Shown: one piece after another, positions 7,515 through 36,499 of the stretch
How the letters are laid out: every line of letters begins with the position of its first letter
Numbering within the stretch: position 1 is the first letter of the stretch
Origin: an uncultured Candidatus Saccharibacteria bacterium
GTDB lineage: Bacteria > Patescibacteriota > JABMPQ01 > JAQVVF01
Length of the DNA: 64,000 nucleotides
NCBI GenBank assembly: GCA_964574655.1
Contig: CAZNOH010000001.1
Location: forward strand, 400,247 to 464,246
Reading direction: 5' to 3'
Made by a program: the position numbers and the translations under genes
Notes under the pieces: model-generated
What the model was told of the DNA's origin: nothing
Databases searched by the model: none
The model's input: the letters and a program-made list of their open reading frames with translations, nothing else

Positions 7515-10079
7515 ATGATTACATTTAATACAGGAAAATCAAAAATATTTCGTTATGCAGGATTAGTCAGATTCTTGCGAGTTTTTATTTTTAAGATTTT
7601 GTCTTTTTTTGTTTATTTATTAGGTATTTGTTCTTTTGCCTTTGTAATTTTATATAATTTTTCAAGTTTATATAATTTGAATTTTAACAGCAGAATGTTG
7701 GGTTTTGCGGTTATCTGCTTGGCTTTTTCTTTGTTCTATTTGTCATTCCATGTTTTTTATGAATCAGGAGTCAGAAATGTAAAGCCATTAATTCCTTTGA
7801 AAGATGCTTTGGCGATTGCAAAAAAAGACGGAAATATTAATTTAGCTGATTTTGTCTCTATCAATTTAGCAATTGCAATATCAAATGCTTTGAAGAAGAG
7901 CAAAAATAAAAAGGATGCGATGATTAATTCTTCTGATCTGCTTTTGGAATTATTGAAAGTGAAATCAATAAAATTTATTGTTAATCGTATTGGTCTAAGT
8001 GTTTTGGATTTAGAAAAATATGTTGAAGAATATGCGTCAGCAAAATCAAAACAATATCTGGATTCACCGCAAACATTGAAAAAAGCTTTAGAGGTTGGCT
8101 ATCTGGAAGGACATGAAATAATAAGTTGCGGTGATATTTTTGTTGTTTTGTCAGCTCTTGATCCTTTGATGAAAAAGATTTTGTTTGATTTAAATTTAAA
8201 GATTGAAGATATTGCGAATATTGTTTATTGGGAAACTTCTTTTTATAAATTTAGAAAAGAGAAGAATTTTGATCCGGATAAAATCAAGAGAAAGGGCGGG
8301 ATTGGTAGAGAGTGGGCATATGGTTATACTAGAGCGTTAAGAACATTTGGTCATGATTTGACTGATGAAATATTAAGAGGCGCGCTTCCTTTTCATATTA
8401 TTGGACATGAAAAAAATATCAATCAGATAGAAGATGTCCTTGTTCGCGCGACACATCATAATGTGATTTTACAAGGCGCTCCTGGCGTTGGTAAAAGAAC
8501 AGTTGTTTTGGGTCTTGCAAAAAGAATTCTGGAAGGTACTGCTTATTCTAGCTTAGCTAATAAGAGATTAATTGAATTAGATGTTGATAGATTGTTAGCT
8601 GGAGCACAAACTCCAGGTGAGATTATTGAAAGATTGGAAGCAGTAATGTCTGATGCTGTTGTTGCAGGCAATATTGTGTTGTTTATTGATAATATTCAGA
8701 AATTATTTGGTAGCGGTGAGGGCAAGGTTGGATCAATTGATGCTTCTCAAGTGTTAGTGCCATTTTTAGAGAATCCAAATTTATATTTTGTATCAACTGC
8801 TAATTCTGACGATTTTCATCAATATATTGAAACAAGATCAGCAGTATCTGATAAGTTTGAAGTTTTGGAGATTACTGAGCCTAATGAAAATGTGACCTTA
8901 AGAATTTTAGAAGATATGGCTCCAAAGCTAGAATCTCAAGGAGGAGTAATAATGAGCTATCCGGCTTTGAAATCCATCTACAAATTAGCTGATCAATTTT
9001 TGTATTCAAAGCCTTTTCCTGAAAAGGCAATTGATTTTTTGAATGAAACAATTGTTTTTGCTTCTGCTTTTGGCAGAGGAACAATTGTTTTGCCAAAACA
9101 CATTGAAACTTTGATGAAGAAAAAAGTTAAGGCGCCGATAGGCGAGGCTGAAGGCGCAGAAAAACAATTGTTATTGCATTTGGAAGACTTTTTGCATAAG
9201 CGTGTTGTTGATCAAGAAGAAGCAATAAGGGTAGTTTCTGATGCTTTGAGGCGTGCAAGATCAGGCGTTGAAGCAGGAAATAAACCAGTGGGTAGTTTCT
9301 TATTTTTAGGACCAACTGGAGTTGGAAAGACTGAAACCACAAAAGCACTTGCAGAAGCTTATTTTGGTTCGGAGAAATCAATGATACGTTTTGATATGTC
9401 AGAATATCAGGATCAAGCCTCTGTTTATCGTTTGATTGGTCCTCCTCCTGGAACGACTGAGGCGAAAGCTGGCGGTGAATTAACAAATGCAATTAAAGAT
9501 AATCCTTTTACTGTTGTTTTGTTTGACGAAGTCGAAAAAGCGCACAAAGATATTTTGAATTTATTTTTACAAATGTTGGACGAGGGCTGGTTGACTGATT
9601 CTTTAGGAAGAAAAGTAAAGTTTAATAATGCCATGATTATTGCAACATCAAATGCTGGAGCTAACTTGATTCAAGATGGTATAAGACAACATCTCGATCC
9701 AGTAGTTTTAAAAGAGAGATTAATAAATTATTTACAGGCCGAGGGCATATTTAGGCCGGAATTTTTGAATAGATTCACTTCTGTCGTTTATTTCAAGCCT
9801 TTGGAAAAAGAGCATGTTTTACAAATTACGAAAATGTTATTAGGTAAACTAGTCAAAAGATTAGAACAAGAAAAGGGAATTTATTTGAGAATTGATGAGC
9901 CAGGAATTGAAAGATTGGCTGAGCTTGGTTTTGATCCTTTGATGGGTGCAAGGCCTATCATGAGGACAATTCAAAACTATGTTGAAAATATTTTGGCAAA
10001 GAAGATGTTAACTGGTGAAGTTAAAAGAGGAAGTCAGTTTGTGATTACTTTAGTTGATATCAATAATACAAAACAATAA
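7515..10079 (+). CDS. Membrane-anchored Clp/Hsp100-family double-AAA+ ATPase (ClpA/ClpC-like, no ClpB M-domain)
   Basis: N-terminal TM helices. D1 Walker A GAPGVGKRT with a degenerate Walker B LFIDN. D2 Walker A GPTGVGKTE and Walker B FDEVEKAH. Confidence 0.75.
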   Translation: MITFNTGKSKIFRYAGLVRFLRVFIFKILSFFVYLLGICSFAFVILYNFSSLYNLNFNSRMLGFAVICLAFSLFYLSFHVFYESGVRNVKPLIPLKDALAIAKKDGNINLADFVSINLAIAISNALKKSKNKKDAMINSSDLLLELLKVKSIKFIVNRIGLSVLDLEKYVEEYASAKSKQYLDSPQTLKKALEVGYLEGHEIISCGDIFVVLSALDPLMKKILFDLNLKIEDIANIVYWETSFYKFRKEKNFDPDKIKRKGGIGREWAYGYTRALRTFGHDLTDEILRGALPFHIIGHEKNINQIEDVLVRATHHNVILQGAPGVGKRTVVLGLAKRILEGTAYSSLANKRLIELDVDRLLAGAQTPGEIIERLEAVMSDAVVAGNIVLFIDNIQKLFGSGEGKVGSIDASQVLVPFLENPNLYFVSTANSDDFHQYIETRSAVSDKFEVLEITEPNENVTLRILEDMAPKLESQGGVIMSYPALKSIYKLADQFLYSKPFPEKAIDFLNETIVFASAFGRGTIVLPKHIETLMKKKVKAPIGEAEGAEKQLLLHLEDFLHKRVVDQEEAIRVVSDALRRARSGVEAGNKPVGSFLFLGPTGVGKTETTKALAEAYFGSEKSMIRFDMSEYQDQASVYRLIGPPPGTTEAKAGGELTNAIKDNPFTVVLFDEVEKAHKDILNLFLQMLDEGWLTDSLGRKVKFNNAMIIATSNAGANLIQDGIRQHLDPVVLKERLINYLQAEGIFRPEFLNRFTSVVYFKPLEKEHVLQITKMLLGKLVKRLEQEKGIYLRIDEPGIERLAELGFDPLMGARPIMRTIQNYVENILAKKMLTGEVKRGSQFVITLVDINNTKQ

Positions 10080-10087
10080 GAGATATT

Positions 10088-10600
10088 ATGAATAGTATTT
10101 ATATTTTGGAAGTCGGGAGGGTTGATGATCTGGATTGGCGAAAATTAGAAAACGGTTTAGTAAAAATTTTTAATTTTAAGATAAAAAAAATCGGGCCTGT
10201 TGATGTGCCTGATTTTGCTTTTAATTCAGAAAAAAATCAGTATGATGCAGAAAAAATTTTGCTAGATACTCAAAATATTAATTTTGATGATTTGGAAAAA
10301 ATATTGGTTGTTACGGAGAAAGATATATTTGCTTTAGAATACAATTATATTTTTGGACAAGGAGATTGCCCAGGCAGACAAAGTATTGTTTCAATATTTC
10401 GTTTGCTAGATAAAGACAAAAATTTATTTGAGGAGCGAGTTTTAAAAGAGGCAATTCATGAGTTGGGACATAATTTTGGACTTTCTCATTGTCCAATAAA
10501 AACTTGTCCAATGTATTTTTCTAATAATGCAGTAGATACAGATTTGAAAGAAATTGAGTTGTGTGAAAAATGTAATAATTTGTTAAAAATGGTAAAATAA
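10088..10600 (+). CDS. Archaemetzincin-like zinc metallopeptidase (M54)
   Basis: HELGHNFGLSHC (HExxHxxGxxH). C-terminal CPMYF...CEKC cysteine motif. Confidence 0.7.
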   Translation: MNSIYILEVGRVDDLDWRKLENGLVKIFNFKIKKIGPVDVPDFAFNSEKNQYDAEKILLDTQNINFDDLEKILVVTEKDIFALEYNYIFGQGDCPGRQSIVSIFRLLDKDKNLFEERVLKEAIHELGHNFGLSHCPIKTCPMYFSNNAVDTDLKEIELCEKCNNLLKMVK

Positions 10601-10660: not shown

Positions 10661-11025
10661 ATGGATAAACAAACTAAAAAAGAATTTACAACGCTCAAAA
10701 AAGGATTTACTACACTCAATAAAGAATTTACAGATCTGAAGAAAGTAATAAAAAATGGATTTAAGACGCAAGATGTTAAGTTTAATAATTTGCATGATAG
10801 AATTGATGATCTAGCTATGATGGTAAAAAAAAGTTTGATCAGAATAGTAAAGAGCATGAACAAAATAGAATAGAACATGAGCAAAATAGAAGAGAGCATG
10901 AAGAGATTTTAAACGAATTGGCAGAAGTTGATTTGAAATTAGGGGAAAAAGCAATGTGTGGTGATTATATTGATTTAGAGAGTCGTGTTGATGTTATCGA
11001 AAGAAAATTATTTCCGATTAGATAG
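10661..11025 (+). pseudogene. Small coiled-coil protein interrupted by a frameshift at an A8 homopolymer (10825-10832)
   Basis: Frame 1 MDKQ..MMVKK terminates at 10873. The +2 frame continues as KFDQNSKEHEQNRIEHEQNRREHEEILNELAEVDLKLGEKAMCGDYIDLESRVDVIERKLFPIR to about 11025. An A9 tract would fuse the two frames. Confidence 0.4.
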
Positions 11026-11830: not shown

Positions 11831-11869
11831 AGTTTTTGGCTTTAAAAAGGTATTTACTAAGCACTAAGA

Positions 11870-13414
11870 ATGTTATATAATAATTTTAGCATAATTTTAT
11901 GCTTTTTCAAAGGATATTTTATGAATAAAAAGCCTGATTTTAGGCAATTATTGGCTAAAATTAAGAAAATTGATTGGTGGACAGAAGAGGCGCCTGGTGT
12001 TTATCAAAAGTTTTTGTATCCTGTTGCTTCGGCAATTGGTCAACGACGTTTTTTTCATCCTAAATATTTAGATTTTGTAATTTTTGTATTTGAAAACGAT
12101 TTTGTACATGAAGAAAGTCCAATTAATCAAAAGCAAGAGATTTATAAGTATATTTATAAAAAAGTAGAAAAAGACAAAAGTTATTTAAAAAAAAGGAGAA
12201 AAGAATCTTTGGAATCTGCGAGACGTTATATTTGCAAAGGCAATTTTTTCGAAAAAAATCAGAAGAAGCTGACAAATAAGCAAGTTTGGCAATTGTACAA
12301 AAAGTTTGTTCAGGGTGATTATTATGATTATGTTTGTTATGGATATATGCTTGAATGTGCTGATGTGGTAAATTTTCAAGGATTGGTAAAGAAAGAGAAA
12401 AAACAGTTGGATGATGAAAACATTGAAAAAATTTGTTTTGTGCTTGGAGTGCCAGCTATTTTGAGCTTTATGGAGAAAGCTAGAATTATTTTTTTGGAAG
12501 CTATATTATCGTCAGACCATGAGCAAAGAGAAAACAAAATTAAAGAGTTGGCAAAAAAATACTATTGGCTGGAAAATAATTATAAAAGAGCAAAAATTTT
12601 GGAAACTGGCGATTTTAATGAAAAAATTAAAGGCGAACTGAAAAAAGTTAAGAGAAATGATTTAAAGAAGGAACTATCAAGCTTAAAATCAAAAGTTGGC
12701 AAACTATTAAAAGAAAAACAAGCAATTAAAGAGAAATATAAATTTTCTCAAGATTTATTGTTAAATTTTGAAATTTTAGAATATATTGGTTCATGGAGCG
12801 ATGAGAGAAAGGCGAATATGATGCAAGCGAATCATTATCTTGAAGCTTTTTGTCAAGAAATAGCTAAAAGATTTGGAATTAAAGTTGAAGACATTAATTA
12901 TTATTTGGTTGAAGAAATCAAAGATTTATTATTGAAAGGCGTTAAAGTTAAAAAGGATATTTTAAAAAAACGCAGAGATTTTTCAGCGATTGTAATGACG
13001 CCTGGCAGAACAAAAAGAGATGTTAAAATGGAATTTTATTATGAAAAAAATGCTAAAAAGATTTATAATGCAATTTTTGAAAGGCAAGAATCTTTAGAAA
13101 TCAGAGGACAAGTTGCTTCAGCACCAGTTGAAAGGATTTATGGTCAAGTGCAGTTAGTTTTGGATCCTGATAATGTTGAATTTAAAAAAGGCAGAATACT
13201 GCTGACAACAATGACAAGGCCGGATTTTATTCCTATTGCAAGATTAGCGAGTGCAATAATTACTGATGAGGGCGGAATAACATGTCATGCTGCTATTTTG
13301 GCTCGGGAAATGGGCGTTCCTTGTATTATTGGTACAAAAAAGGTAACTAAAGTTTTGAAAGATGGAGATAACATAGAAATGGATCTAAAAACAGGAATAA
13401 TTAAATTAATTTAA
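11870..13414 (+). CDS. Protein with a C-terminal PEP-utilizer phosphohistidine (swivel) domain and a novel N-terminal domain. First of two paralogs.
   Basis: C-terminus ITDEGGITCHAAILAREMGVPCIIGT (PEP-utilizers domain, catalytic His). The N-terminal ~380 aa have no known motif. The true start may be the downstream MNKKPDF. Confidence 0.6.
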   Translation: MLYNNFSIILCFFKGYFMNKKPDFRQLLAKIKKIDWWTEEAPGVYQKFLYPVASAIGQRRFFHPKYLDFVIFVFENDFVHEESPINQKQEIYKYIYKKVEKDKSYLKKRRKESLESARRYICKGNFFEKNQKKLTNKQVWQLYKKFVQGDYYDYVCYGYMLECADVVNFQGLVKKEKKQLDDENIEKICFVLGVPAILSFMEKARIIFLEAILSSDHEQRENKIKELAKKYYWLENNYKRAKILETGDFNEKIKGELKKVKRNDLKKELSSLKSKVGKLLKEKQAIKEKYKFSQDLLLNFEILEYIGSWSDERKANMMQANHYLEAFCQEIAKRFGIKVEDINYYLVEEIKDLLLKGVKVKKDILKKRRDFSAIVMTPGRTKRDVKMEFYYEKNAKKIYNAIFERQESLEIRGQVASAPVERIYGQVQLVLDPDNVEFKKGRILLTTMTRPDFIPIARLASAIITDEGGITCHAAILAREMGVPCIIGTKKVTKVLKDGDNIEMDLKTGIIKLI

Positions 13415-13462
13415 AATTATATGGCAAAAACATTTGAACAAATAATTTAAATCAAATAATTT

Positions 13463-14890
13463 ATGAGGAATAAGTGGCTTATCTATACAAGAGGCGCTAT
13501 ACCATTATTTCGAATTGAATTGTTTATTCAAGGTTTGTTTGATTATCAAAAATTAAACAAAGATTTTGAAGTAAAGAATATTATTTTTTACAATAGTGGC
13601 AAGAAAGTTTGGTTTGGATGGAAAGATGGAGAAATAAAAAAGATCTGTCGGAAAATTGTGAAAAAATGTTATGACAGGAGCATCATTGAATATTTAGATG
13701 ATTGGCAAAAACAAGCAAAAGAAATTATTAATTTTTCTAATGAGTTCCTAAAAATTAATTTGAAGAAATCTAGCCAAAAAGATTTATTAATGCTATTTGA
13801 TAAGATATATGCGCAAAGTTTTGGTCCTTTGGCTGTTTTAAATACTTATATTGACGCAATCGATATTGTTTTTGAAAAAGAATTAATAAAATCATTAAAG
13901 AAAGAATTAGTAGGCAAGTTAGATGATAATGAATTTTTAAATTTTTATCGTCAGATTTCAAAGCCAATCTTTTTGTCTTACGTTGCATTGGAAGAAAAGG
14001 AATTGTTAAAAATAAAATTAGACTTGAACAATAAAAATGTTCAATGGTTGGCAATAAATTTTTGGTGGACAGCATTGGGATGGGAAGGTTTGGAAACTAA
14101 AGGTATAAAGTATTTTTCAGCTAAATTAAAAAAAATAGATAAGAAGCAAGCTAAAAAGAGACTTAATAAGATGGAAAAAGGTTTGTCCAAAACTAGGAAT
14201 TTAAGAGGGCAATTGATTGAAAAATATAAATTATCAAATAAGATAATGTTTTGGCTTGATTTATGTGATAAATTTGCAGTAGTTCATGATTTAAGAAAAG
14301 AAATACAGATGAGGACTGTCTATTGTTTTTTTATTATTTTGACAGAAACAGCAAAAAGGATGGGATACAATGTGCTTGATTTGGAATATTTGGCTTTTCA
14401 GGAAATAAGAATAATGCTTAAATCAGGAATAATAGAGAGGGATAAAATATTGGATAGAAAAAAGTCTTATGCGGTATTGTCTAGTTCGAGGCAAATTAAA
14501 TATTTTAATTCAAAACAATCAAAAGTTATTTTTAATCAGGAAATTAGTAGTCAAAGTGTGAAGACTAAAGAATTGTCAGGAATGAGCGCAGGCGCGCAGA
14601 GAAATGTGACAGGCAAAGTTAAAGTTTGTGCTGGATATAAAGAAGCAATTAGAAAAATTAAAAAAGGCGATATTCTTGTTTGTGGAATGACTTTGCCTGA
14701 TTATGTTCCTGCAATGAAATTAGCATCTGGTATAATAACTAATGAAGGCGGAATTACTTGTCATGCTGCAATTTTATCTAGAGAGTTGGATATTCCATGT
14801 ATTGTTGGAACAAAAATAGCGACTGAAGTGTTAAAAGATGGAATGTTTGTAGAAATGGATACAAAAAGAGGAATTGTAAAAATAATTTAA
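13463..14890 (+). CDS. Protein with a C-terminal PEP-utilizer phosphohistidine (swivel) domain. Second paralog.
   Basis: C-terminus ITNEGGITCHAAILSRELDIPCIVGT. Paralogous to the upstream ORF. Confidence 0.6.
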   Translation: MRNKWLIYTRGAIPLFRIELFIQGLFDYQKLNKDFEVKNIIFYNSGKKVWFGWKDGEIKKICRKIVKKCYDRSIIEYLDDWQKQAKEIINFSNEFLKINLKKSSQKDLLMLFDKIYAQSFGPLAVLNTYIDAIDIVFEKELIKSLKKELVGKLDDNEFLNFYRQISKPIFLSYVALEEKELLKIKLDLNNKNVQWLAINFWWTALGWEGLETKGIKYFSAKLKKIDKKQAKKRLNKMEKGLSKTRNLRGQLIEKYKLSNKIMFWLDLCDKFAVVHDLRKEIQMRTVYCFFIILTETAKRMGYNVLDLEYLAFQEIRIMLKSGIIERDKILDRKKSYAVLSSSRQIKYFNSKQSKVIFNQEISSQSVKTKELSGMSAGAQRNVTGKVKVCAGYKEAIRKIKKGDILVCGMTLPDYVPAMKLASGIITNEGGITCHAAILSRELDIPCIVGTKIATEVLKDGMFVEMDTKRGIVKII

Positions 14891-14893
14891 GTT

Positions 14894-15151
14894 ATGAAAT
14901 ATATTTCTTTATGGAAAAGAGAGTATACTCCTCAATATGTTGATAATTATATGAGAGCATTGGGAATAAATAATAGTCTTTATAATCTAAAGACAATTTT
15001 GTGTTATCCAAGTGATCATATGGAAGTAAATGTTTGCAAAGAAGATGATTTTGAAAGATATATTACTCATGTTTTTGATTTTTTTGGAAAAGATTTGAGT
15101 AAATTTAAAATTTTGGAAGATAATTTGAAAAAAAATGGTTTAAATATATGA
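14894..15151 (+). CDS. Hypothetical protein (operon member)
   Basis: ORF tightly packed in the operon. No motif. Confidence 0.3.
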   Translation: MKYISLWKREYTPQYVDNYMRALGINNSLYNLKTILCYPSDHMEVNVCKEDDFERYITHVFDFFGKDLSKFKILEDNLKKNGLNI

Positions 15152-15900
15152 AAAAAGTGTTTAAAATTTACAAAAAAATTGAAGAAACAAACTTATTAAA
15201 GTTGAGTTCTGTTTTTCTTGGTTTTGTAGTTGGAAAAAATAAGGATAAGCAAATAAAGCCATTTTTTAAAAATTCTTTTGTAGTTGCTAGAGAGAATGAA
15301 GGAATATTATATTGGCAAGAAGAAAGTTTTGAAAAAACGATAACAAAGTTAGATAGCTTACTTCAGAAAAAACCAAAATATAATCTTGAATTATTGAAAA
15401 AAATTGGCAAAAAGGCAAAAGAAATTAAAAAGATAACTGCTAAGATTTTGAAATCAAAGCTGAATAAAAAAAGTAATTCTGAAATGATAAAGTTGCTACA
15501 GCAATTGTATAATGTCGAAATGGAATGGGCGGATATGTTGGCTGTTCCGAATATTCTTATTTTGGGATTTAAAGAAACTTTAAGTCCAGAAAAAGAACTT
15601 ATTTTATCTAAAGTAAAACCAGGTGAATTTGTGAGTTTTGTAGTTGATACGGAGAATATGATGAATCAGGCTATGAATTTGGTGATTAAAGAAATATCTA
15701 GACGGACATTTTATTCTGTTAATCAATTGAATTATGCTTTGCCTATCGAAATAAAGGATATAATTAATAAAAAAGGATTGAAAAGATATGAATTAGAGGA
15801 AAGGCAAAAAATTTGTTTGGTGCAATGCAATAGAAATGGTAAATTAAAGATAATCGATGGTGATGAGGCAAGAAAATTTATAAAAAAGAATGCAAAATAA
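15148..15900 (+). CDS. Hypothetical protein (operon member)
   Basis: ATGA overlap with the upstream ORF. No motif. Confidence 0.35.
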   Translation: MKKVFKIYKKIEETNLLKLSSVFLGFVVGKNKDKQIKPFFKNSFVVARENEGILYWQEESFEKTITKLDSLLQKKPKYNLELLKKIGKKAKEIKKITAKILKSKLNKKSNSEMIKLLQQLYNVEMEWADMLAVPNILILGFKETLSPEKELILSKVKPGEFVSFVVDTENMMNQAMNLVIKEISRRTFYSVNQLNYALPIEIKDIINKKGLKRYELEERQKICLVQCNRNGKLKIIDGDEARKFIKKNAK

Positions 15901-16849
15901 TTACATCATTCCATTTGAAAAATTAAATAAGGATTCAATTTTTGAAGCTGGAGGCAAAGGCGCTTCTTTGGGGGAAATGTTGGAGCATGGTTTTCCTGTT
16001 CCTAGTGGTTTTGTGATTTCAGCAAAAGCTTTTGAGAAATATATAGATGATAATGATATTAATGTCGAGATTATAAAATATTTAGCTAAAGTAAATTTGA
16101 AAGATATGGAAAGCGTTGAAGAAGCTTCAGAAGTGATAATAAGTTTAGTTAGAGATGGCAAGATGGATGAAAATTTACAAAAATTGATACTTGCTGAATT
16201 TAAAAAACAGAAAATGGATTTAGTGGCTGTTAGATCAAGCGCAACTGCCGAAGATTCTAAAATTGATTCTTGGGCAGGAGAACTGGAATCTTATCTAGAC
16301 GTAAATAAGAAAGATTTGATTCAGAAAATAAAATTATGTTGGGCATCTCTATTTACTCCTAGAGCAATATTTTATCGCTTAGAGCGCAAATTAGGCGGAA
16401 AAAAAGTGATGGTAGCTGTAGTTGTTCAGAAGATGGTGCAGTCCGAAGTTTCAGGAGTTGCTTTCTCTGTTCACCCAGTAACAAGAGATAAAAATCAAAT
16501 GATAATTGAGGCAGGGTATGGATTAGGTGAGGCGATTGTTGCTGGATTGATTACGCCAGACGCATATATTATTGATAAGCGCAATTTTGAAATTATTGAT
16601 AAGAATATGTCTAAGCAGACTCTTATGATAATAAGAAACAAAAAAGCAAGAAAACAAAAAAACACTATTGATACTAGCGTGCCTAAATCAAAGATAGAAA
16701 GACAAAAATTAAGTAATAACAAAATTATTGAATTGGCTAAAATAGTTAAAAATATTGAGAAACATTATAAAAGGCCGATGGATATTGAATGGGCTTTGGA
16801 AAAGGGAAAATTATATGTTGTACAAGCAAGACCAATCACGACATTGTAA
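15890..16849 (+). CDS. Stand-alone PPDK_N / PEP-synthase-type ATP-grasp nucleotide-binding domain protein
   Basis: EAGGKGASLGEM...VAVRSSATAEDS...MVAVVVQKMV...IIEAGYGLGEAIV...VQARPIT is a complete pyruvate phosphate dikinase N-terminal-like domain. There is no swivel or TIM-barrel domain. Confidence 0.7.
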   Translation: MQNNYIIPFEKLNKDSIFEAGGKGASLGEMLEHGFPVPSGFVISAKAFEKYIDDNDINVEIIKYLAKVNLKDMESVEEASEVIISLVRDGKMDENLQKLILAEFKKQKMDLVAVRSSATAEDSKIDSWAGELESYLDVNKKDLIQKIKLCWASLFTPRAIFYRLERKLGGKKVMVAVVVQKMVQSEVSGVAFSVHPVTRDKNQMIIEAGYGLGEAIVAGLITPDAYIIDKRNFEIIDKNMSKQTLMIIRNKKARKQKNTIDTSVPKSKIERQKLSNNKIIELAKIVKNIEKHYKRPMDIEWALEKGKLYVVQARPITTL

Positions 16850-16911
16850 ATTTGTGGATATTATTAGTAGATAATATGTTATAATAATTTGAAAAATAAT
16901 TTTAAAACAAA

Positions 16912-17178
16912 ATGACAAAAGAAGATTTGGAGCAATTTCGCGATATAGTTTATAAGGTTTTTAGAGATAAATTTTCATCATACATTAGGAAAAATATTAA
17001 GAAAAATAAAAAAGCAAGAGTTTTAAAAGAGCGTAGAATGCATGTTTTATTTGAAAAAAGAGACGAAGTATTGAGATTATGCAGAGAAGTTAAGTATGGG
17101 GCAAGAAGAAATAGAATTAAAGCAGAAAAAATGTTGTTTAATACAAATAATTATCTTAAGAAACATAGAAATGCTTGA
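16912..17178 (+). CDS. Small basic hypothetical protein
   Basis: 88 aa, K/R-rich. No motif. Confidence 0.3.
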   Translation: MTKEDLEQFRDIVYKVFRDKFSSYIRKNIKKNKKARVLKERRMHVLFEKRDEVLRLCREVKYGARRNRIKAEKMLFNTNNYLKKHRNA

Positions 17179-17206
17179 TTTTGTGGATAAAAAGGGCTAA
17201 AATGAG

Positions 17207-17231
17207 CATGTAATATTTACATGTTTTTTTT
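17207..17231 (+). terminator. Hairpin CATGTAA-tat-TTACATG plus T8, abutting the pfkB start codon (terminator or attenuator)
   Basis: The stem-loop is followed by tttttttt and then ATG at 17232. Confidence 0.4.
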
Positions 17232-18170
17232 ATGCAAAAAGTTTTAGTTTGTGGATCTTTGGCTTTTGATTATATTATGAATTTTAATGACAAATTTAAA
17301 AACCATATTTTGCCAGATAAAATTCATGTTTTGAACGTTTGTTTTGGGGCAGAAAAATTATCAAAGGAATTTGGTGGAACTGCTGGCAATATTGCTTATA
17401 ATTTAAGATTGTTGGGCATTGATCCAATTATATTTGCTTCAGTAGGAAAAGATTTTGTAGATTATAAATCATGGTTAGCAAAGAATAAGATAAAGACGAA
17501 TTATATTAATTATACAAAAGAATATACAGCTTCTTGCCATATTATTACTGATTTGGATGATAATCAGATCACTTTTTTTCATGGAGGAGCAATGTTGCAC
17601 AATCATTTGTCTTTAAAAAAGATTATTAAAAAAGAAAAGATTAAATTAGCGATTTGTGCGCCTGATTGTCATAAAGGCATGTTATTGCACACAAAAGAAT
17701 TGCAGGATATGAAGATTCCTTACATTTTTGACCCAGGACAAGGAATTGGCGGGTATTCTGGATCTGAATTAATTAGAATGGCAAAAGGCTCGTTATGTAC
17801 AATTTTGAATGATTATGAATTCAGTGTTTTCCAAGAAAAGACAAAGCTAATAAAACAGGAAATCTTAGAGTTAACTAAATATTTAATAATCACATTAGGA
17901 CCTAAAGGTTCAGAAATCTATTTTGGTGGTAAGGTTTATAAAATTTTATGCGCTAAACCGAAGAAGATCCTGGATCCAACTGGAGCGGGGGACGCATATC
18001 GGGCTGGATTAATATTTGGCTTGTTAAATAATTTTAAAGTTGATAAAATTGGTAAAATAGGAGCGTGTGTATCGGCATATACTGTTGAAAAATATGGTAC
18101 ACAGACACACAAATTTGATTTAATTAATTTTAAGACAAGATTTAATAAAAATTTTAAAGAAAAAATATGA
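17232..18170 (+). CDS. PfkB-family carbohydrate/nucleoside kinase, probably adenosine kinase given its coupling to ahcY
   Basis: DPTGAGDAYRAG PfkB signature. 4-nt overlap with ahcY. Confidence 0.7.
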   Translation: MQKVLVCGSLAFDYIMNFNDKFKNHILPDKIHVLNVCFGAEKLSKEFGGTAGNIAYNLRLLGIDPIIFASVGKDFVDYKSWLAKNKIKTNYINYTKEYTASCHIITDLDDNQITFFHGGAMLHNHLSLKKIIKKEKIKLAICAPDCHKGMLLHTKELQDMKIPYIFDPGQGIGGYSGSELIRMAKGSLCTILNDYEFSVFQEKTKLIKQEILELTKYLIITLGPKGSEIYFGGKVYKILCAKPKKILDPTGAGDAYRAGLIFGLLNNFKVDKIGKIGACVSAYTVEKYGTQTHKFDLINFKTRFNKNFKEKI

Positions 18171-19423
18171 AATCTGATGTAAAAGATTTGGAACTAGCAA
18201 AAAATGGCAAGAGAAGAATAGAATGGGCAGAATCTCAAATGCCTGTTTTGAATTTGATTAAAGAAAGATTCAAAAGAGAAAAACCTTTTTCTGGAAAGAA
18301 AATTGGAGCATGCTTGCATGTAACTTGTGAAACTGCAAATTTAATGAGAGCCTTGAAAGCTGGTGGGGCAGAAATAGTATTATGTGCATCTAATCCACTA
18401 TCTACTCAAGATGATGTTGTAGCTAGTTTGGCAAAAGATTATGGAATTAATACTTTTGCAATTAAAGGTGAAGATAAAAAAACTTATTATAAACATTTGA
18501 ATGCTGTTTTGGATTTTAAGCCAGCTATTACTTTGGATGATGGAGCTGATTTGATTTCATTGCTGCATTCAAAGAGAAAAAACCAAATTAAAGATGTATT
18601 AGGAAGCATGGAAGAAACAACTACTGGCGTTATTAGATTGAGAGCAATGGAAAAAGATAAGGCTTTAATGATTCCTATTATTGCGGTTAATGATGCTTTG
18701 ACTAAGCATTTATTTGATAATAGATATGGAACAGGTCAAAGTACAATAGATGGAATCATCAGAGCAACTGGAGTTCTTTTTGCTGGGCAAACTGTTGTTG
18801 TAGTTGGTTATGGTTGGTGTGGAAGGGGATTTGCATCAAGATGCAAGGGGTTGGGAGCTAATGTGATTGTTTGCGAAGTTGATCCGATCAAAGCAATTGA
18901 AGCGAGCATGGATGGATTCATGGTAATGCCAATGCAAAAAGCTGCAAGTTTGGGAGATGTCTTTTGTACATTAACGGGAGATATAAATGTAATAAATTCG
19001 AACCATTTTAGGAAAATGAAAGACAATGCTATCGTATGCAATTCTGGACATTTTAATGCAGAGATTGATATTGATGGATTGAAAAAGATTTCTAAGAGCG
19101 TTAAATCAGTGAACACATTTGTTGAACAGTACATTTTAGAAAATGGAAACAAGATTAATTTATTAGCAGAAGGTAGATTGATTAATTTGTCTGCTGCCGA
19201 AGGTCATCCAGCAAGTGTCATGGATATGTCTTTTGCTAATCAAGCGCTCTGCGTTGAATATGTTGTTGAAAATTATAAATATTTAAGTCCGAAAGTTTAT
19301 TCAGTGCCAAAAGAGATTGATGAAAAGGTAGCTAAATTAAAGCTTGATTCAATGGGTATTAAGATTGATAAGTTATCTTCAGAACAAAAGAAGTATTTGA
19401 ATTCTTGGGAGATGGGAACATAA
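18167..19423 (+). CDS. ahcY: S-adenosyl-L-homocysteine hydrolase
   Basis: 418 aa. NAD-binding GYGWCGRG. Conserved AhcY blocks throughout. Confidence 0.9.
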   Translation: MKSDVKDLELAKNGKRRIEWAESQMPVLNLIKERFKREKPFSGKKIGACLHVTCETANLMRALKAGGAEIVLCASNPLSTQDDVVASLAKDYGINTFAIKGEDKKTYYKHLNAVLDFKPAITLDDGADLISLLHSKRKNQIKDVLGSMEETTTGVIRLRAMEKDKALMIPIIAVNDALTKHLFDNRYGTGQSTIDGIIRATGVLFAGQTVVVVGYGWCGRGFASRCKGLGANVIVCEVDPIKAIEASMDGFMVMPMQKAASLGDVFCTLTGDINVINSNHFRKMKDNAIVCNSGHFNAEIDIDGLKKISKSVKSVNTFVEQYILENGNKINLLAEGRLINLSAAEGHPASVMDMSFANQALCVEYVVENYKYLSPKVYSVPKEIDEKVAKLKLDSMGIKIDKLSSEQKKYLNSWEMGT

Positions 19424-36052: not shown

Positions 36053-36499
36053 TTATTTTTTGATGACAATGACTTTAATATCAGCTGAAATTTCAGGAGC
36101 AAATTTTAGTTTGACTTTGTACTCTCCTGTATTTTTAATTGCAGATGATAGAGCTACAACTTTTTCGTCAATATCTAGCTTCAATTGCTCTTTTATATTT
36201 TCGGAAATAACTTTTGCTGTTATTGAACCAAACAAAATTCCTTCTTCGTTTGCTTTAGAAGCAATTTTGATTTCTTTTTGATTTATTGTTTCAGCTAAAT
36301 CTTTTGCTTGCTTCAAAGCTTCTTCTTTTCTTTTCTTTATTTCAGTTTGCATTTGTTTTGCCAATTCAATCTCTTTTGTAGTTGCTAAGACAGCTAATTT
36401 TTTTGGCAAAAGAAAATTCTTACCAAAGCCCAAAGTTACTTCTTTGATTTCGCCTGTAAAACCTAATTTTTCGACATCCTTTTTTAAAACAACTTTCAT
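36053..36499 (-). CDS. rplI: 50S ribosomal protein L9
   Basis: MKVVLKKDVEKLGFTGEIKEV..GFGKNFLLP. Confidence 0.85.
   Translation of the reverse strand: MKVVLKKDVEKLGFTGEIKEVTLGFGKNFLLPKKLAVLATTKEIELAKQMQTEIKKRKEEALKQAKDLAETINQKEIKIASKANEEGILFGSITAKVISENIKEQLKLDIDEKVVALSSAIKNTGEYKVKLKFAPEISADIKVIVIKK

Follow-up and report, generated by a model that had tools for sequence, protein, structure and literature searches.

Two kinds of described enzyme are close to the system considered here. In the rifampin phosphotransferase RPH, residues R666, E667, and K670 constitute a phosphate-binding network, and in mutants R666A and E667A the inactivation of rifampin is abolished (PMC4844700). PpsAB (phenylphosphate synthase), CreHI, and HpeHI/AcvAB are characterized two-component dikinases (Dexter et al., 2025, PMC12167813), which require both proteins for activity and carry out the dikinase reaction via a conserved histidine; they occur as 1:1 pairs in aromatic-catabolism clusters of free-living bacteria, and HpeH, CreH, and PpsA are ∼45% identical among themselves (PMC12167813). 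The DNA analyzed here is a 64,000-nucleotide stretch from an uncultured Candidatus Saccharibacteria bacterium, referred to throughout as the window, and the system in question is an operon of five genes, g1 to g5, in which g1 and g2 encode swivel-domain proteins and g5 a stand-alone ATP-grasp protein. The operon is likely to encode a modular, multi-acceptor, two-component water dikinase of RPH type, in which one ATP-grasp protein serves substrate-specific phosphohistidine carriers for different small molecules. By sequence comparison it appears to be a reduced and partly eroded member of large arrays found in bacteria of the candidate phyla radiation (CPR) and in DPANN archaea, of which subfamilies D and A remain.

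Architecture of the carrier and ATP-grasp subunits

Proteins g1 and g2 each end, as the original prediction had stated, in a phosphoenolpyruvate (PEP)-utilizer swivel domain: PF00391 matches residues 438–509 of g1 (E = 4e-23) and 399–470 of g2 (E = 1e-24), and GGITCHAAIL with its catalytic histidine is present in both. This histidine is aligned with His825 of RPH and is invariant in 22 of 22 subfamilies of related proteins described below. The N-terminal parts, which had been called unrelated and devoid of known motifs, indeed match no Pfam family, but they are homologous to each other and to the substrate domain of RPH. Pairwise alignment gives 30% identity between g1 and g2 across ∼400 residues including the swivel (E = 9e-45), the N-terminal domains (N-domains) being ∼20% identical and the swivels 64%, and g1 is recognized by the N-domain hidden Markov model (HMM) built in this analysis. 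More than 1500 full-length homologues of g2, ∼475 residues long, were found, and the observation is therefore not due to chance. Custom HMMs found no further open reading frame (ORF) with a swivel or PPDK_N domain elsewhere in the window. At the DNA level the 3′ ends of the two genes that code for the swivels (g1, 13210–13414; g2, 14686–14890) are 73% identical over 157 nt, with 83% identity in the final 41 nt and no DNA similarity in the remainder of the genes, a likeness for which either gene conversion between these paralogs or strong purifying selection could be the cause.

An AlphaFold model of g2, computed from an alignment of 45 homologues, has a predicted local distance difference test score (pLDDT) of 92.5 and a predicted template modeling score (pTM) of 0.90. 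A helical substrate domain of the rifampin (RIF)-binding-domain type sits N-terminal to the swivel. In a Foldseek search with the model the top six matches are all structures of RPH-Lm, the best with E = 3e-15 and a query-normalized template modeling (TM) score of 0.57, and all remaining matches have TM scores of at most 0.21; outside the swivel the model thus appears to resemble RPH only. The N-domain profile alone had no match among the sequences of the Protein Data Bank (PDB), which only the full-length profile links to RPH, so that the likeness over most of this domain is structural only. The full-length family profile aligns with RPH residues 651–866 (E = 4e-30), and the NCBIfam models for RPH, PigC/RedH, and the PRK06241 group match the swivel and 100–150 residues upstream of it.

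Within this upstream region the profile alignment pairs H275-D276-L-R278-K279 of g2 with R666-E667-Y-P-K670 of RPH, and in g1 the residues at the positions of R666, E667, and K670 are S310, D311, and K314. The acidic residue and the lysine of the phosphate site are kept in both carriers, and an arginine equivalent to the R666 position is absent; two residues past that position an arginine is found (R278 in g2, R313 in g1), which is conserved in 21 of 22 subfamilies, and D276 of g2 is conserved in 18 of 22. The N-domain residues common across subfamilies are D276, R278, E314, R332, and a few structural ones, in a protein family whose swivel is nearly invariant. The match of the g2 model to RPH alone beyond the swivel and the partly retained phosphotransfer motif both favor the original prediction's choice of an RPH-like dikinase over PEP synthase (PEPS).

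That choice holds for the architecture and the substrate domain, but for neither the ATP-grasp domain nor the swivel, both of which are closer to true PEP synthase. Protein g5, said to be a complete stand-alone PPDK_N domain, proves to be one (PF01326, E = 2e-95, profile positions 4–311 of 328). It aligns end to end with the ATP-grasp-only RPH construct 5hv6 (residues 15–327) and also with the N-terminal domain of PEP synthase, terminates exactly at the ATP-grasp domain boundary (RPITTL), and has intact GGKGASLGE, VAVRSSATAED, DIEWA, and VVQARPITT motifs. It scores 341 bits (E = 2e-101) against the N-terminal region of the NCBIfam PEP synthase model NF005057, versus 259 bits (E = 9e-77) against NCBIfam RPH, and matches PEP synthase structure 8a8e with E = 7e-70. 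Similarly, g2 matches NF005057 with E = 9e-36, the family profile reaches E = 2e-44 with 8a8e versus the 4e-30 given above for RPH, and the swivels keep the GGxT-S/C-H sequence, which is the regulatory-threonine position of PEPS (PMC12167813). Because g5 and the swivels score better with PEP synthase than with RPH, the system would be chimeric in character, with donor and carrier modules like those of PEPS and an acceptor module and module order like those of RPH. As the best sequence match is PEP synthase, water-dikinase chemistry is likely.

The same scores, together with the conserved regulatory-threonine position, could be read as signs of a broken PEP synthase or pyruvate phosphate dikinase (PPDK), that is, of pseudogenised ppsA fragments or of a genuine PEP synthase, divided over several proteins, with pyruvate as its substrate. 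We find this scarcely credible. The PEP/pyruvate-binding TIM barrel, which the original prediction had also reported missing, is absent, PF02896 being unmatched in g1 to g5 and in the flanking genes; the NCBIfam matches to PEPS and PPDK span the ATP-grasp domain or the swivel alone and lie far under the cut-offs; the domain order is wrong, with the substrate domain preceding the swivel and the ATP-grasp domain last; the modeled N-domain fold is helical and RPH-like; and the ∼475-residue architecture is kept in more than 1500 proteins. The N-domains are thus not PEPS or PPDK fragments, the catalytic histidine is present, and the specific case of a pseudogenised ppsA is excluded by the missing barrel, the domain order, and the conserved architecture.

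For the two-component dikinase favored here, the characterized homologues RPH and HpeHI/PpsAB suggest how the reaction may proceed. The g5 protein, from which g1 and g2 alike are presumed to receive their phosphoryl group, would bind ATP and pass the beta-phosphate to swivel residue His473 of g1 (numbered for the 514-residue form) or His434 of g2, with the gamma-phosphate leaving as inorganic phosphate and AMP being formed. The charged swivel would then return to the helical N-domain on the same polypeptide, where the D-x-R-K motif would position the phosphoryl group for transfer to the small molecule that this domain binds. Because g1 and g2 belong to subfamilies D and A and have N-domains so much less alike than their swivels, they most likely share the donor and phosphorylate two different substrates.

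Related arrays in CPR bacteria and DPANN archaea

Scanning genomes that represent species gave 80 related loci, all in metagenome-assembled genomes (MAGs) of CPR or DPANN type, which were analyzed with our own ORF calls and HMMs; counts of units (substrate domain plus swivel) and of ATP-grasp genes refer to the subset of 62 loci of at least 15 kb. These carry a median of six units and a maximum of 12, with four or more in 46 of the 62; a PPDK_N gene lies inside the fetched stretch in 24, and none has more than one ATP-grasp gene. In the window and in 24 related loci ATP-grasp domain and units are encoded on separate polypeptides within one cluster. The arrays occupy up to ∼15.6 kb in genomes smaller than 1 Mb. 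A deep N-domain profile search gave 3362 clusters at 50% identity, and homologues of g2 are labeled "PEP-utilizing enzyme" or PEP synthase in records of Patescibacteria, Woesearchaeota, and similar lineages. Several of the array-bearing MAG contigs (L001, L016, L026, L028, L035, L048, and others) carry the labels Margulisiibacteriota, "uncultured Gammaproteobacteria", or "Methanosarcinales", which are probably wrong given the synteny and gene content that they have in common with Patescibacteria and DPANN loci.

Clustering of the units yields at least 22 subfamilies, each represented at most once per locus, and a unit's closest relative by N-domain is, in 360 of 368 cases, in a different genome and not in the same array. 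Between subfamilies the N-domains are on average 16% and the swivels 57% identical, which fits different substrates and one shared ATP-grasp docking partner. Protein g1 belongs to subfamily D, its top relative, in locus L064, having 36.5% identity and 242 bits versus 49 bits for g2, and N-domain clustering assigns g2 to subfamily A. Judged by these sequence relationships, the subfamilies are ancient and differentiated, and g1 and g2 separated anciently, which lends weight to the earlier proposal that two swivel paralogs probably serve two acceptors. The accompanying proposal, that the enzyme is split over separate polypeptides with a single ATP-grasp partner, accords with the end-to-end alignment of g5 with RPH's ATP-grasp domain and with natural fusions of PPDK_N to units. 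Such fusions join PPDK_N to 2–4 units in P0166, P0222, and L022, occur also in L065, and in L083 have the order of RPH itself (PPDK_N, N-domain, swivel). A further fusion, P0150, consists of an F unit, PTA_PTB, a D unit, and an A unit, its D-A order being that of g1 and g2 in the window, and in P0207 a receiver domain lies between two units.

A number of gene families recur embedded in or flanking the arrays. Counted by locus, they comprise a haloacid dehalogenase (HAD) hydrolase (14 loci), four histidine-phosphatase-fold families (5–11 loci each), an HD-domain protein (6), an MtxX/phosphotransacetylase-like protein (12; TIGR03270, E = 1e-15), a homologue of the free serine kinases SbnI/SerK (6), a 138-residue cytidylyl/adenylyltransferase (9), flanking MetK (8), an OTCase/ATCase-like protein (5), a fusion of EamA and riboflavin kinase (6), and a hexapeptide acyltransferase (8). 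Certain combinations are fixed, namely unit I with HAD and histidine-phosphatase (HisPhos) genes in ∼7–8 loci, unit G with HD in five, and the order MetK, nucleotidyltransferase, unit A; a gene of the LMWPc fold lies inside one array. A match to accessory family x280 in the window, at 36053–36499, was rejected, as it spans 53 residues and by eye the protein is ribosomal protein L9-like. This accessory context points to cytoplasmic small-molecule phospho-metabolism. The 80 loci yielded no carboxylase.

Two further observations concern these neighbors. Genes of the S-adenosylmethionine (SAM) cycle adjoin subfamily-A units: in several of L016, L025, L033, L034, L037, L038, and L040 MetK, the small nucleotidyltransferase, and unit A follow in order, and the window has a PfkB kinase and an S-adenosylhomocysteine (AdoHcy) hydrolase downstream of g5. 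Such neighbors could indicate in what area of metabolism the subfamily-A substrate lies, or could be plain synteny. In L059, L071, L074, and L081 the homologue of the L-serine kinases SbnI/SerK (NF033589, E = 2e-24; family x257) has a HAD-like neighbor, and the pair suggests a phosphoserine-type side pathway in CPR.

The pairing of specific units with specific phosphatase-fold genes raises the alternative that the system is an ATP-driven phosphorelay resembling the PEP-dependent phosphotransferase system (PTS), in which units phosphorylate, instead of small molecules directly, partner proteins of histidine-phosphatase, HAD, low-molecular-weight protein tyrosine phosphatase (LMW-PTP), or receiver fold, which would form phospho-enzyme intermediates. 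Besides the fixed I-HAD-HisPhos and G-HD combinations, the LMWPc-fold gene within an array, the response-regulator receiver between two units in the P0207 fusion, and the homology of the swivel to that of PTS Enzyme I are in its favor. Nevertheless, the window lacks any such partner gene yet has two intact units, the N-domain keeps the fold of RPH and, in part, its small-molecule phosphotransfer motif, and the characterized relatives all phosphorylate small molecules directly, so that a phosphorelay is very improbable.

The units could form a battery for the inactivation of antibiotics or xenobiotics, each phosphorylating and so inactivating, like RPH, a toxic small molecule from hosts or competitors. 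Among solved structures only that of a kinase for antibiotic resistance shares the overall fold, RPH is part of a large unexplored enzyme group (Stogios et al., PMC4844700), and many specificities would suit a resistance role. However, the subfamilies are ancient, occur in single copy at each locus, and show synteny across CPR and DPANN, and are thus neither patchy nor recently expanded; the neighbors are metabolic phospho-enzymes; genes for efflux, regulators, or mobile elements were not seen nearby; and PADLOC, which covers phage defence only, has no match for g1, g2, g3, g5, or the 88-residue ORF downstream of g5. We therefore judge such a battery to be distinctly unlikely, and the suggestion of an antibiotic phosphotransferase in the original prediction gained no specific support. 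An anti-phage defence system was likewise rejected, PADLOC giving only two weak, sub-significant matches, both for g4 (E = 0.002–0.005).

A wider interpretation of the multi-acceptor dikinase, offered tentatively and on balance doubtful, is that the arrays constitute a phosphoryl-distribution system of CPR and DPANN, with one charging ATP-grasp protein and up to a dozen metabolite-specific carriers, which replaces many conventional kinases or makes high-energy phosphates. The phosphatase-fold, PTA/MtxX-like, and nucleotidyltransferase genes would then be dedicated partners; alternatively, the products might be enol, aryl, or acyl phosphates of compounds scavenged by ultra-small symbionts. Genes g1, g2, and g5 would represent D and A, the two branches left over in a lineage from which the system is disappearing.

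The operon in the window and in its relatives

Features of the operon and its surroundings are collected in Table 1. The five gene coordinates in the original prediction are borne out, although its title spoke of six genes and its own list held five. The sole candidate for a sixth, the 88-residue ORF 3′ of g5, is of doubtful membership: it has no Pfam family above threshold and no match in related loci, and forms a singleton cluster. The tight junctions that had been described apply from g2 onward, where a spacing of 3 nt separates g2 and g3, g3 and g4 overlap by 4 nt (ATGA), and g4 and g5 overlap by 11 nt, but not to g1 and g2, which are 48 nt apart and thus not tightly coupled.

Table 1. Positions of genes, domains, motifs, and neighboring features in the window.
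Feature	Position	Strand	Description
ClpB/ClpC-like protein	7515–10079	+	Double-AAA+ protein, 854 residues
Peptidase_M54 gene	10088–10600	+	Archaemetzincin-type
70-residue ORF	10661–10873	+	Made of 21-nt (7-residue) tandem repeats
21-nt repeat blocks	10676–10745; 10836–10917		The second just 3′ of the block in the 70-residue ORF
Promoter-like site	11853–11881	+	TTTACT, 17 nt, TATAAT; 10 of 12 consensus matches; just 5′ of g1 Met18
g1	11870–13414	+	514 residues as listed; acceptor/carrier subunit, subfamily D
g1 phosphotransfer-site motif	12797–12811	+	S-D-E-R-K; from g1–g2 alignment, RPH profile alignment, and translation
g1 swivel domain	13181–13396	+	Catalytic His473 (514-residue numbering), codon 13286–13288, in GGITCHAAIL
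g2	13463–14890	+	475 residues; acceptor/carrier subunit, subfamily A
g2 phosphotransfer-site motif	14285–14299	+	H275-D276-L-R278-K279; from profile-to-PDB alignment
g2 swivel domain	14657–14872	+	Catalytic His434, codon 14762–14764, in GGITCHAAIL
g3	14894–15151	+	85 residues; orphan ORF with translational coupling to both g2 and g4
g4	15148–15900	+	250 residues; predicted degenerate, swivel-less paralog of the substrate domain
g5	15890–16849	+	319 residues; stand-alone ATP-grasp (PPDK_N) subunit
88-residue ORF	16912–17178	+	Orphan, 3′ of g5; sole candidate for a sixth gene
PfkB kinase and AdoHcy hydrolase	17232–19423	+	SAM-cycle neighbors

The true start of g1 is probably Met18 at nt 11921, giving a protein of 497 residues, because orthologs begin there, because the promoter-like site overlaps the upstream ATG, and because the 514-residue form is missing from the protein collection in which g2 to g5 are present. 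The promoter-like site is itself weak evidence, since such sites are barely commoner in the window than in shuffled AT-rich sequence. Terminator-like sites in the window are no commoner than in shuffled sequence, Rfam has no match between 9 and 20 kb of the window, and ARAGORN found no tRNA or tmRNA gene across its whole length.

Neither g3 nor g4 has a match in Pfam. Residues 156–249 of g4 are homologous to residues 269–361 of g2 (hhalign probability 96.9%, E = 2e-10), g4 reaches a probability of 95.3% with the N-domain-only alignment, and N-domain HMMs map on it at profile positions 14–149 and 290–369 only. From these alignments g4 appears to be an N-domain that lacks both its middle part and a swivel, and since V-S-F-V-V stands in place of the H-D-L-R-K catalytic motif it is predicted to be a non-catalytic remnant paralog. 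It is an intact, conserved ORF in eight genomes (51–74% identity), although it diverges faster than its neighbors (61–65% identity to orthologs, versus 76–92% for the neighboring genes), and its AlphaFold model, with a pLDDT of 50, was excluded from the fold search. In a collection of 5.8 billion proteins the g3 sequence finds nothing but itself; the related loci hold no match to it either, and it shows no relation to the unit family in hhalign. A weak 7.8-bit match to N-domain profile positions 22–108 leaves g3 as what may be either a small protein specific to this lineage or the N-terminal remnant of a unit that was lost. A single frameshifted unit made of g3 and g4 was ruled out, as the g4 orthologs share a start methionine and stand alone in relatives, and as g3 has no significant similarity to units beyond this hint.

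Syntenic relatives keep the flanking genes, with the ClpB-like protein, the M54 peptidase, and a GT2 glycosyltransferase on one side and, on the opposite side, the PfkB kinase and AdoHcy hydrolase; the window has the GT2, PfkB, AdoHcy hydrolase, and ClpB-like genes as neighbors too. Between these flanks only the g4 ortholog remains in L005, L006, and L088. The closest relative, L087, has g4 and a 94-residue ORF in which residues 1–68 of g5 are fused in frame to its last ∼26; L087 thus lacks a full g5, and g1 to g3 are lost in the closest relatives. The presence of g4 and a collapsed g5 in L087 implies that the ancestor had at least g4 and g5. When L087 positions 1270–1957 are compared with window positions 15900–17230, window sequence 16853–16926, just 3′ of g5, is 82% identical to the sequence just 3′ of L087 g4, which is taken as a local rearrangement accompanying decay. 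The window holds the most complete surviving version of the operon in this clade, and its loss in the nearest relatives indicates that the system is dispensable there.

Such erosion raises the alternative that the operon is a decaying relic, a non-functional leftover of a larger array that is inactive here and heading for deletion. The relatives that retain g4 alone or with a collapsed g5, the fast-evolving g4 without swivel or catalytic motif, and the orphan g3 are all consistent with decay. On the other hand, g1, g2, and g5 are full-length ORFs that keep all conserved catalytic and nucleotide-binding motifs, tight coupling is retained in a genome of ∼0.65 Mb, where dead genes normally vanish fast, and g4 is intact in eight genomes, and on these grounds a relic is considered unlikely. 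Nevertheless, several points weigh against a working multi-acceptor dikinase. The operon is under loss in the nearest relatives and could already be inactive here. The residue equivalent to RPH R666 is histidine in g2 and serine in g1, and the nearby R278 might or might not act in its stead. The partnership of g5 with g1 and with g2 is read from gene linkage and fusions, and no accessory gene of the larger arrays is present in the window.

The surroundings offer a few further observations. The ClpB/ClpC-like protein is 89–91% identical to its counterparts in the syntenic relatives L005 and L006, and its N-terminal ∼90 residues are unusually hydrophobic, which suggests a membrane anchor as judged by sequence. 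The Peptidase_M54 gene, found here in a CPR bacterium, is kept in the syntenic relatives, and its assignment rests on the Pfam match of the L005 and L006 orthologs. The repeats of the 70-residue ORF (KKEFTTLKKGFTTLNKEFTDLKK...) may represent a small protein of heptad repeats or a region of variable repeats. GC skew is positive through most of the window.

Comparison with known systems

The logic of one donor feeding several substrate-specific components via phosphohistidine is analogous to that of PTS Enzyme I and Enzymes II, although the analogy is of logic only, beyond the homology of the Enzyme I swivel to that of the units. The PTS donor is PEP, bound via a TIM barrel, whereas here the predicted donor is ATP, bound via the ATP-grasp domain; moreover, the PTS has HPr and membrane permeases, which the locus lacks, and specificity resides here on the swivel's own polypeptide. 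The prodigiosin-type condensing enzymes PigC, RedH, and HapC share the RPH-like architecture, and by phosphorylation they activate a substrate that reacts further in a subsequent step. NCBIfam PigC/RedH models match g5 with E = 5e-70, and PigC residues 647–881 match residues 249–474 of g2, the swivel and the part before it, with E = 7e-18; these enzymes are, however, single-chain proteins of pigment biosynthesis clusters, the scores here are far under the family cut-offs, and no pyrrole pathway genes are present.

PEP synthase (8A8E, 2OLS) gives the best sequence match for both ATP-grasp domain and swivel, including the GGxT(S/C)HAAI motif. It is a single chain of ATP-grasp, swivel, and PEP/pyruvate TIM barrel, whereas the locus has two copies of substrate domain plus swivel, the remnants, and then the ATP-grasp protein, with a helical RPH-type substrate domain in place of the barrel and the parts on separate polypeptides. 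Metabolic reconstructions of CPR bacteria have had to curate PEPS hits by hand and have suggested that PEPS substitutes for pyruvate kinase (PMC7304191). As the family described here has no pyruvate/PEP domain, its members should not be counted as PEPS in annotation.

RPH-Lm (5FBS, 5FBT, 5FBU, 5HV1; Stogios et al., 2016, PMC4844700) has the same modules, an ATP-grasp domain, a helical substrate domain, and a C-terminal swivel, and its R-E-x-x-K site aligns with H/S-D-x-R-K of the units. It differs in being one chain of 867 residues, whereas the ATP-grasp gene is separate here and would serve a pair of acceptor proteins. The N-domains are alike in sequence only over the last ∼110 residues, overall identity is ∼15%, R666 is not conserved, and the swivel and ATP-grasp domain of the locus are more like those of PEP synthase than of RPH. 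RPH-Lm acts on rifampin, and the locus has no link to rifamycins.

PpsAB, CreHI, and HpeHI have the same division of labor, with an RPH-like substrate domain and swivel on one protein and the ATP-grasp domain on the other, and as they are already characterized the split itself is not new. Their ratio of donor to acceptor is 1:1, whereas it is 1:2 in the window and in the median 1:6 in relatives. The NCBIfam models related to them (the PRK08296 group) match only the linker and swivel of g1 and g2, with 40–79 bits against cut-offs of 578–730; for PRK08296 the matched residues are 363–475, and the N-domain is left unrecognized. The characterized pairs have carboxylase and phosphatase partners in aromatic catabolism, the neighbors in the window include neither carboxylase nor aromatic-pathway genes, and the hosts here are CPR and DPANN symbionts. 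By sequence and context the present system would thus lie outside the PpsAB/CreHI/HpeHI subfamily, though working alike.

What appears to be new is the organization with one donor and many acceptors, the division into at least 22 subfamilies of ancient origin, and the confinement to CPR and DPANN; no description of such arrays was found in open-access papers and bioRxiv, which is not proof of absence. At least 22 subfamilies across bacteria and archaea, in arrays of such length, point to important unexplored phosphorylation reactions in organisms of supposedly minimal metabolism. It is chiefly the family as a whole that is of interest, and less the eroded locus of the window. A single ATP-grasp protein serving many acceptors would be a natural plug-and-play kinase platform, and would extend the recently recognized subfamily of two-component dikinases well beyond aromatic catabolism.

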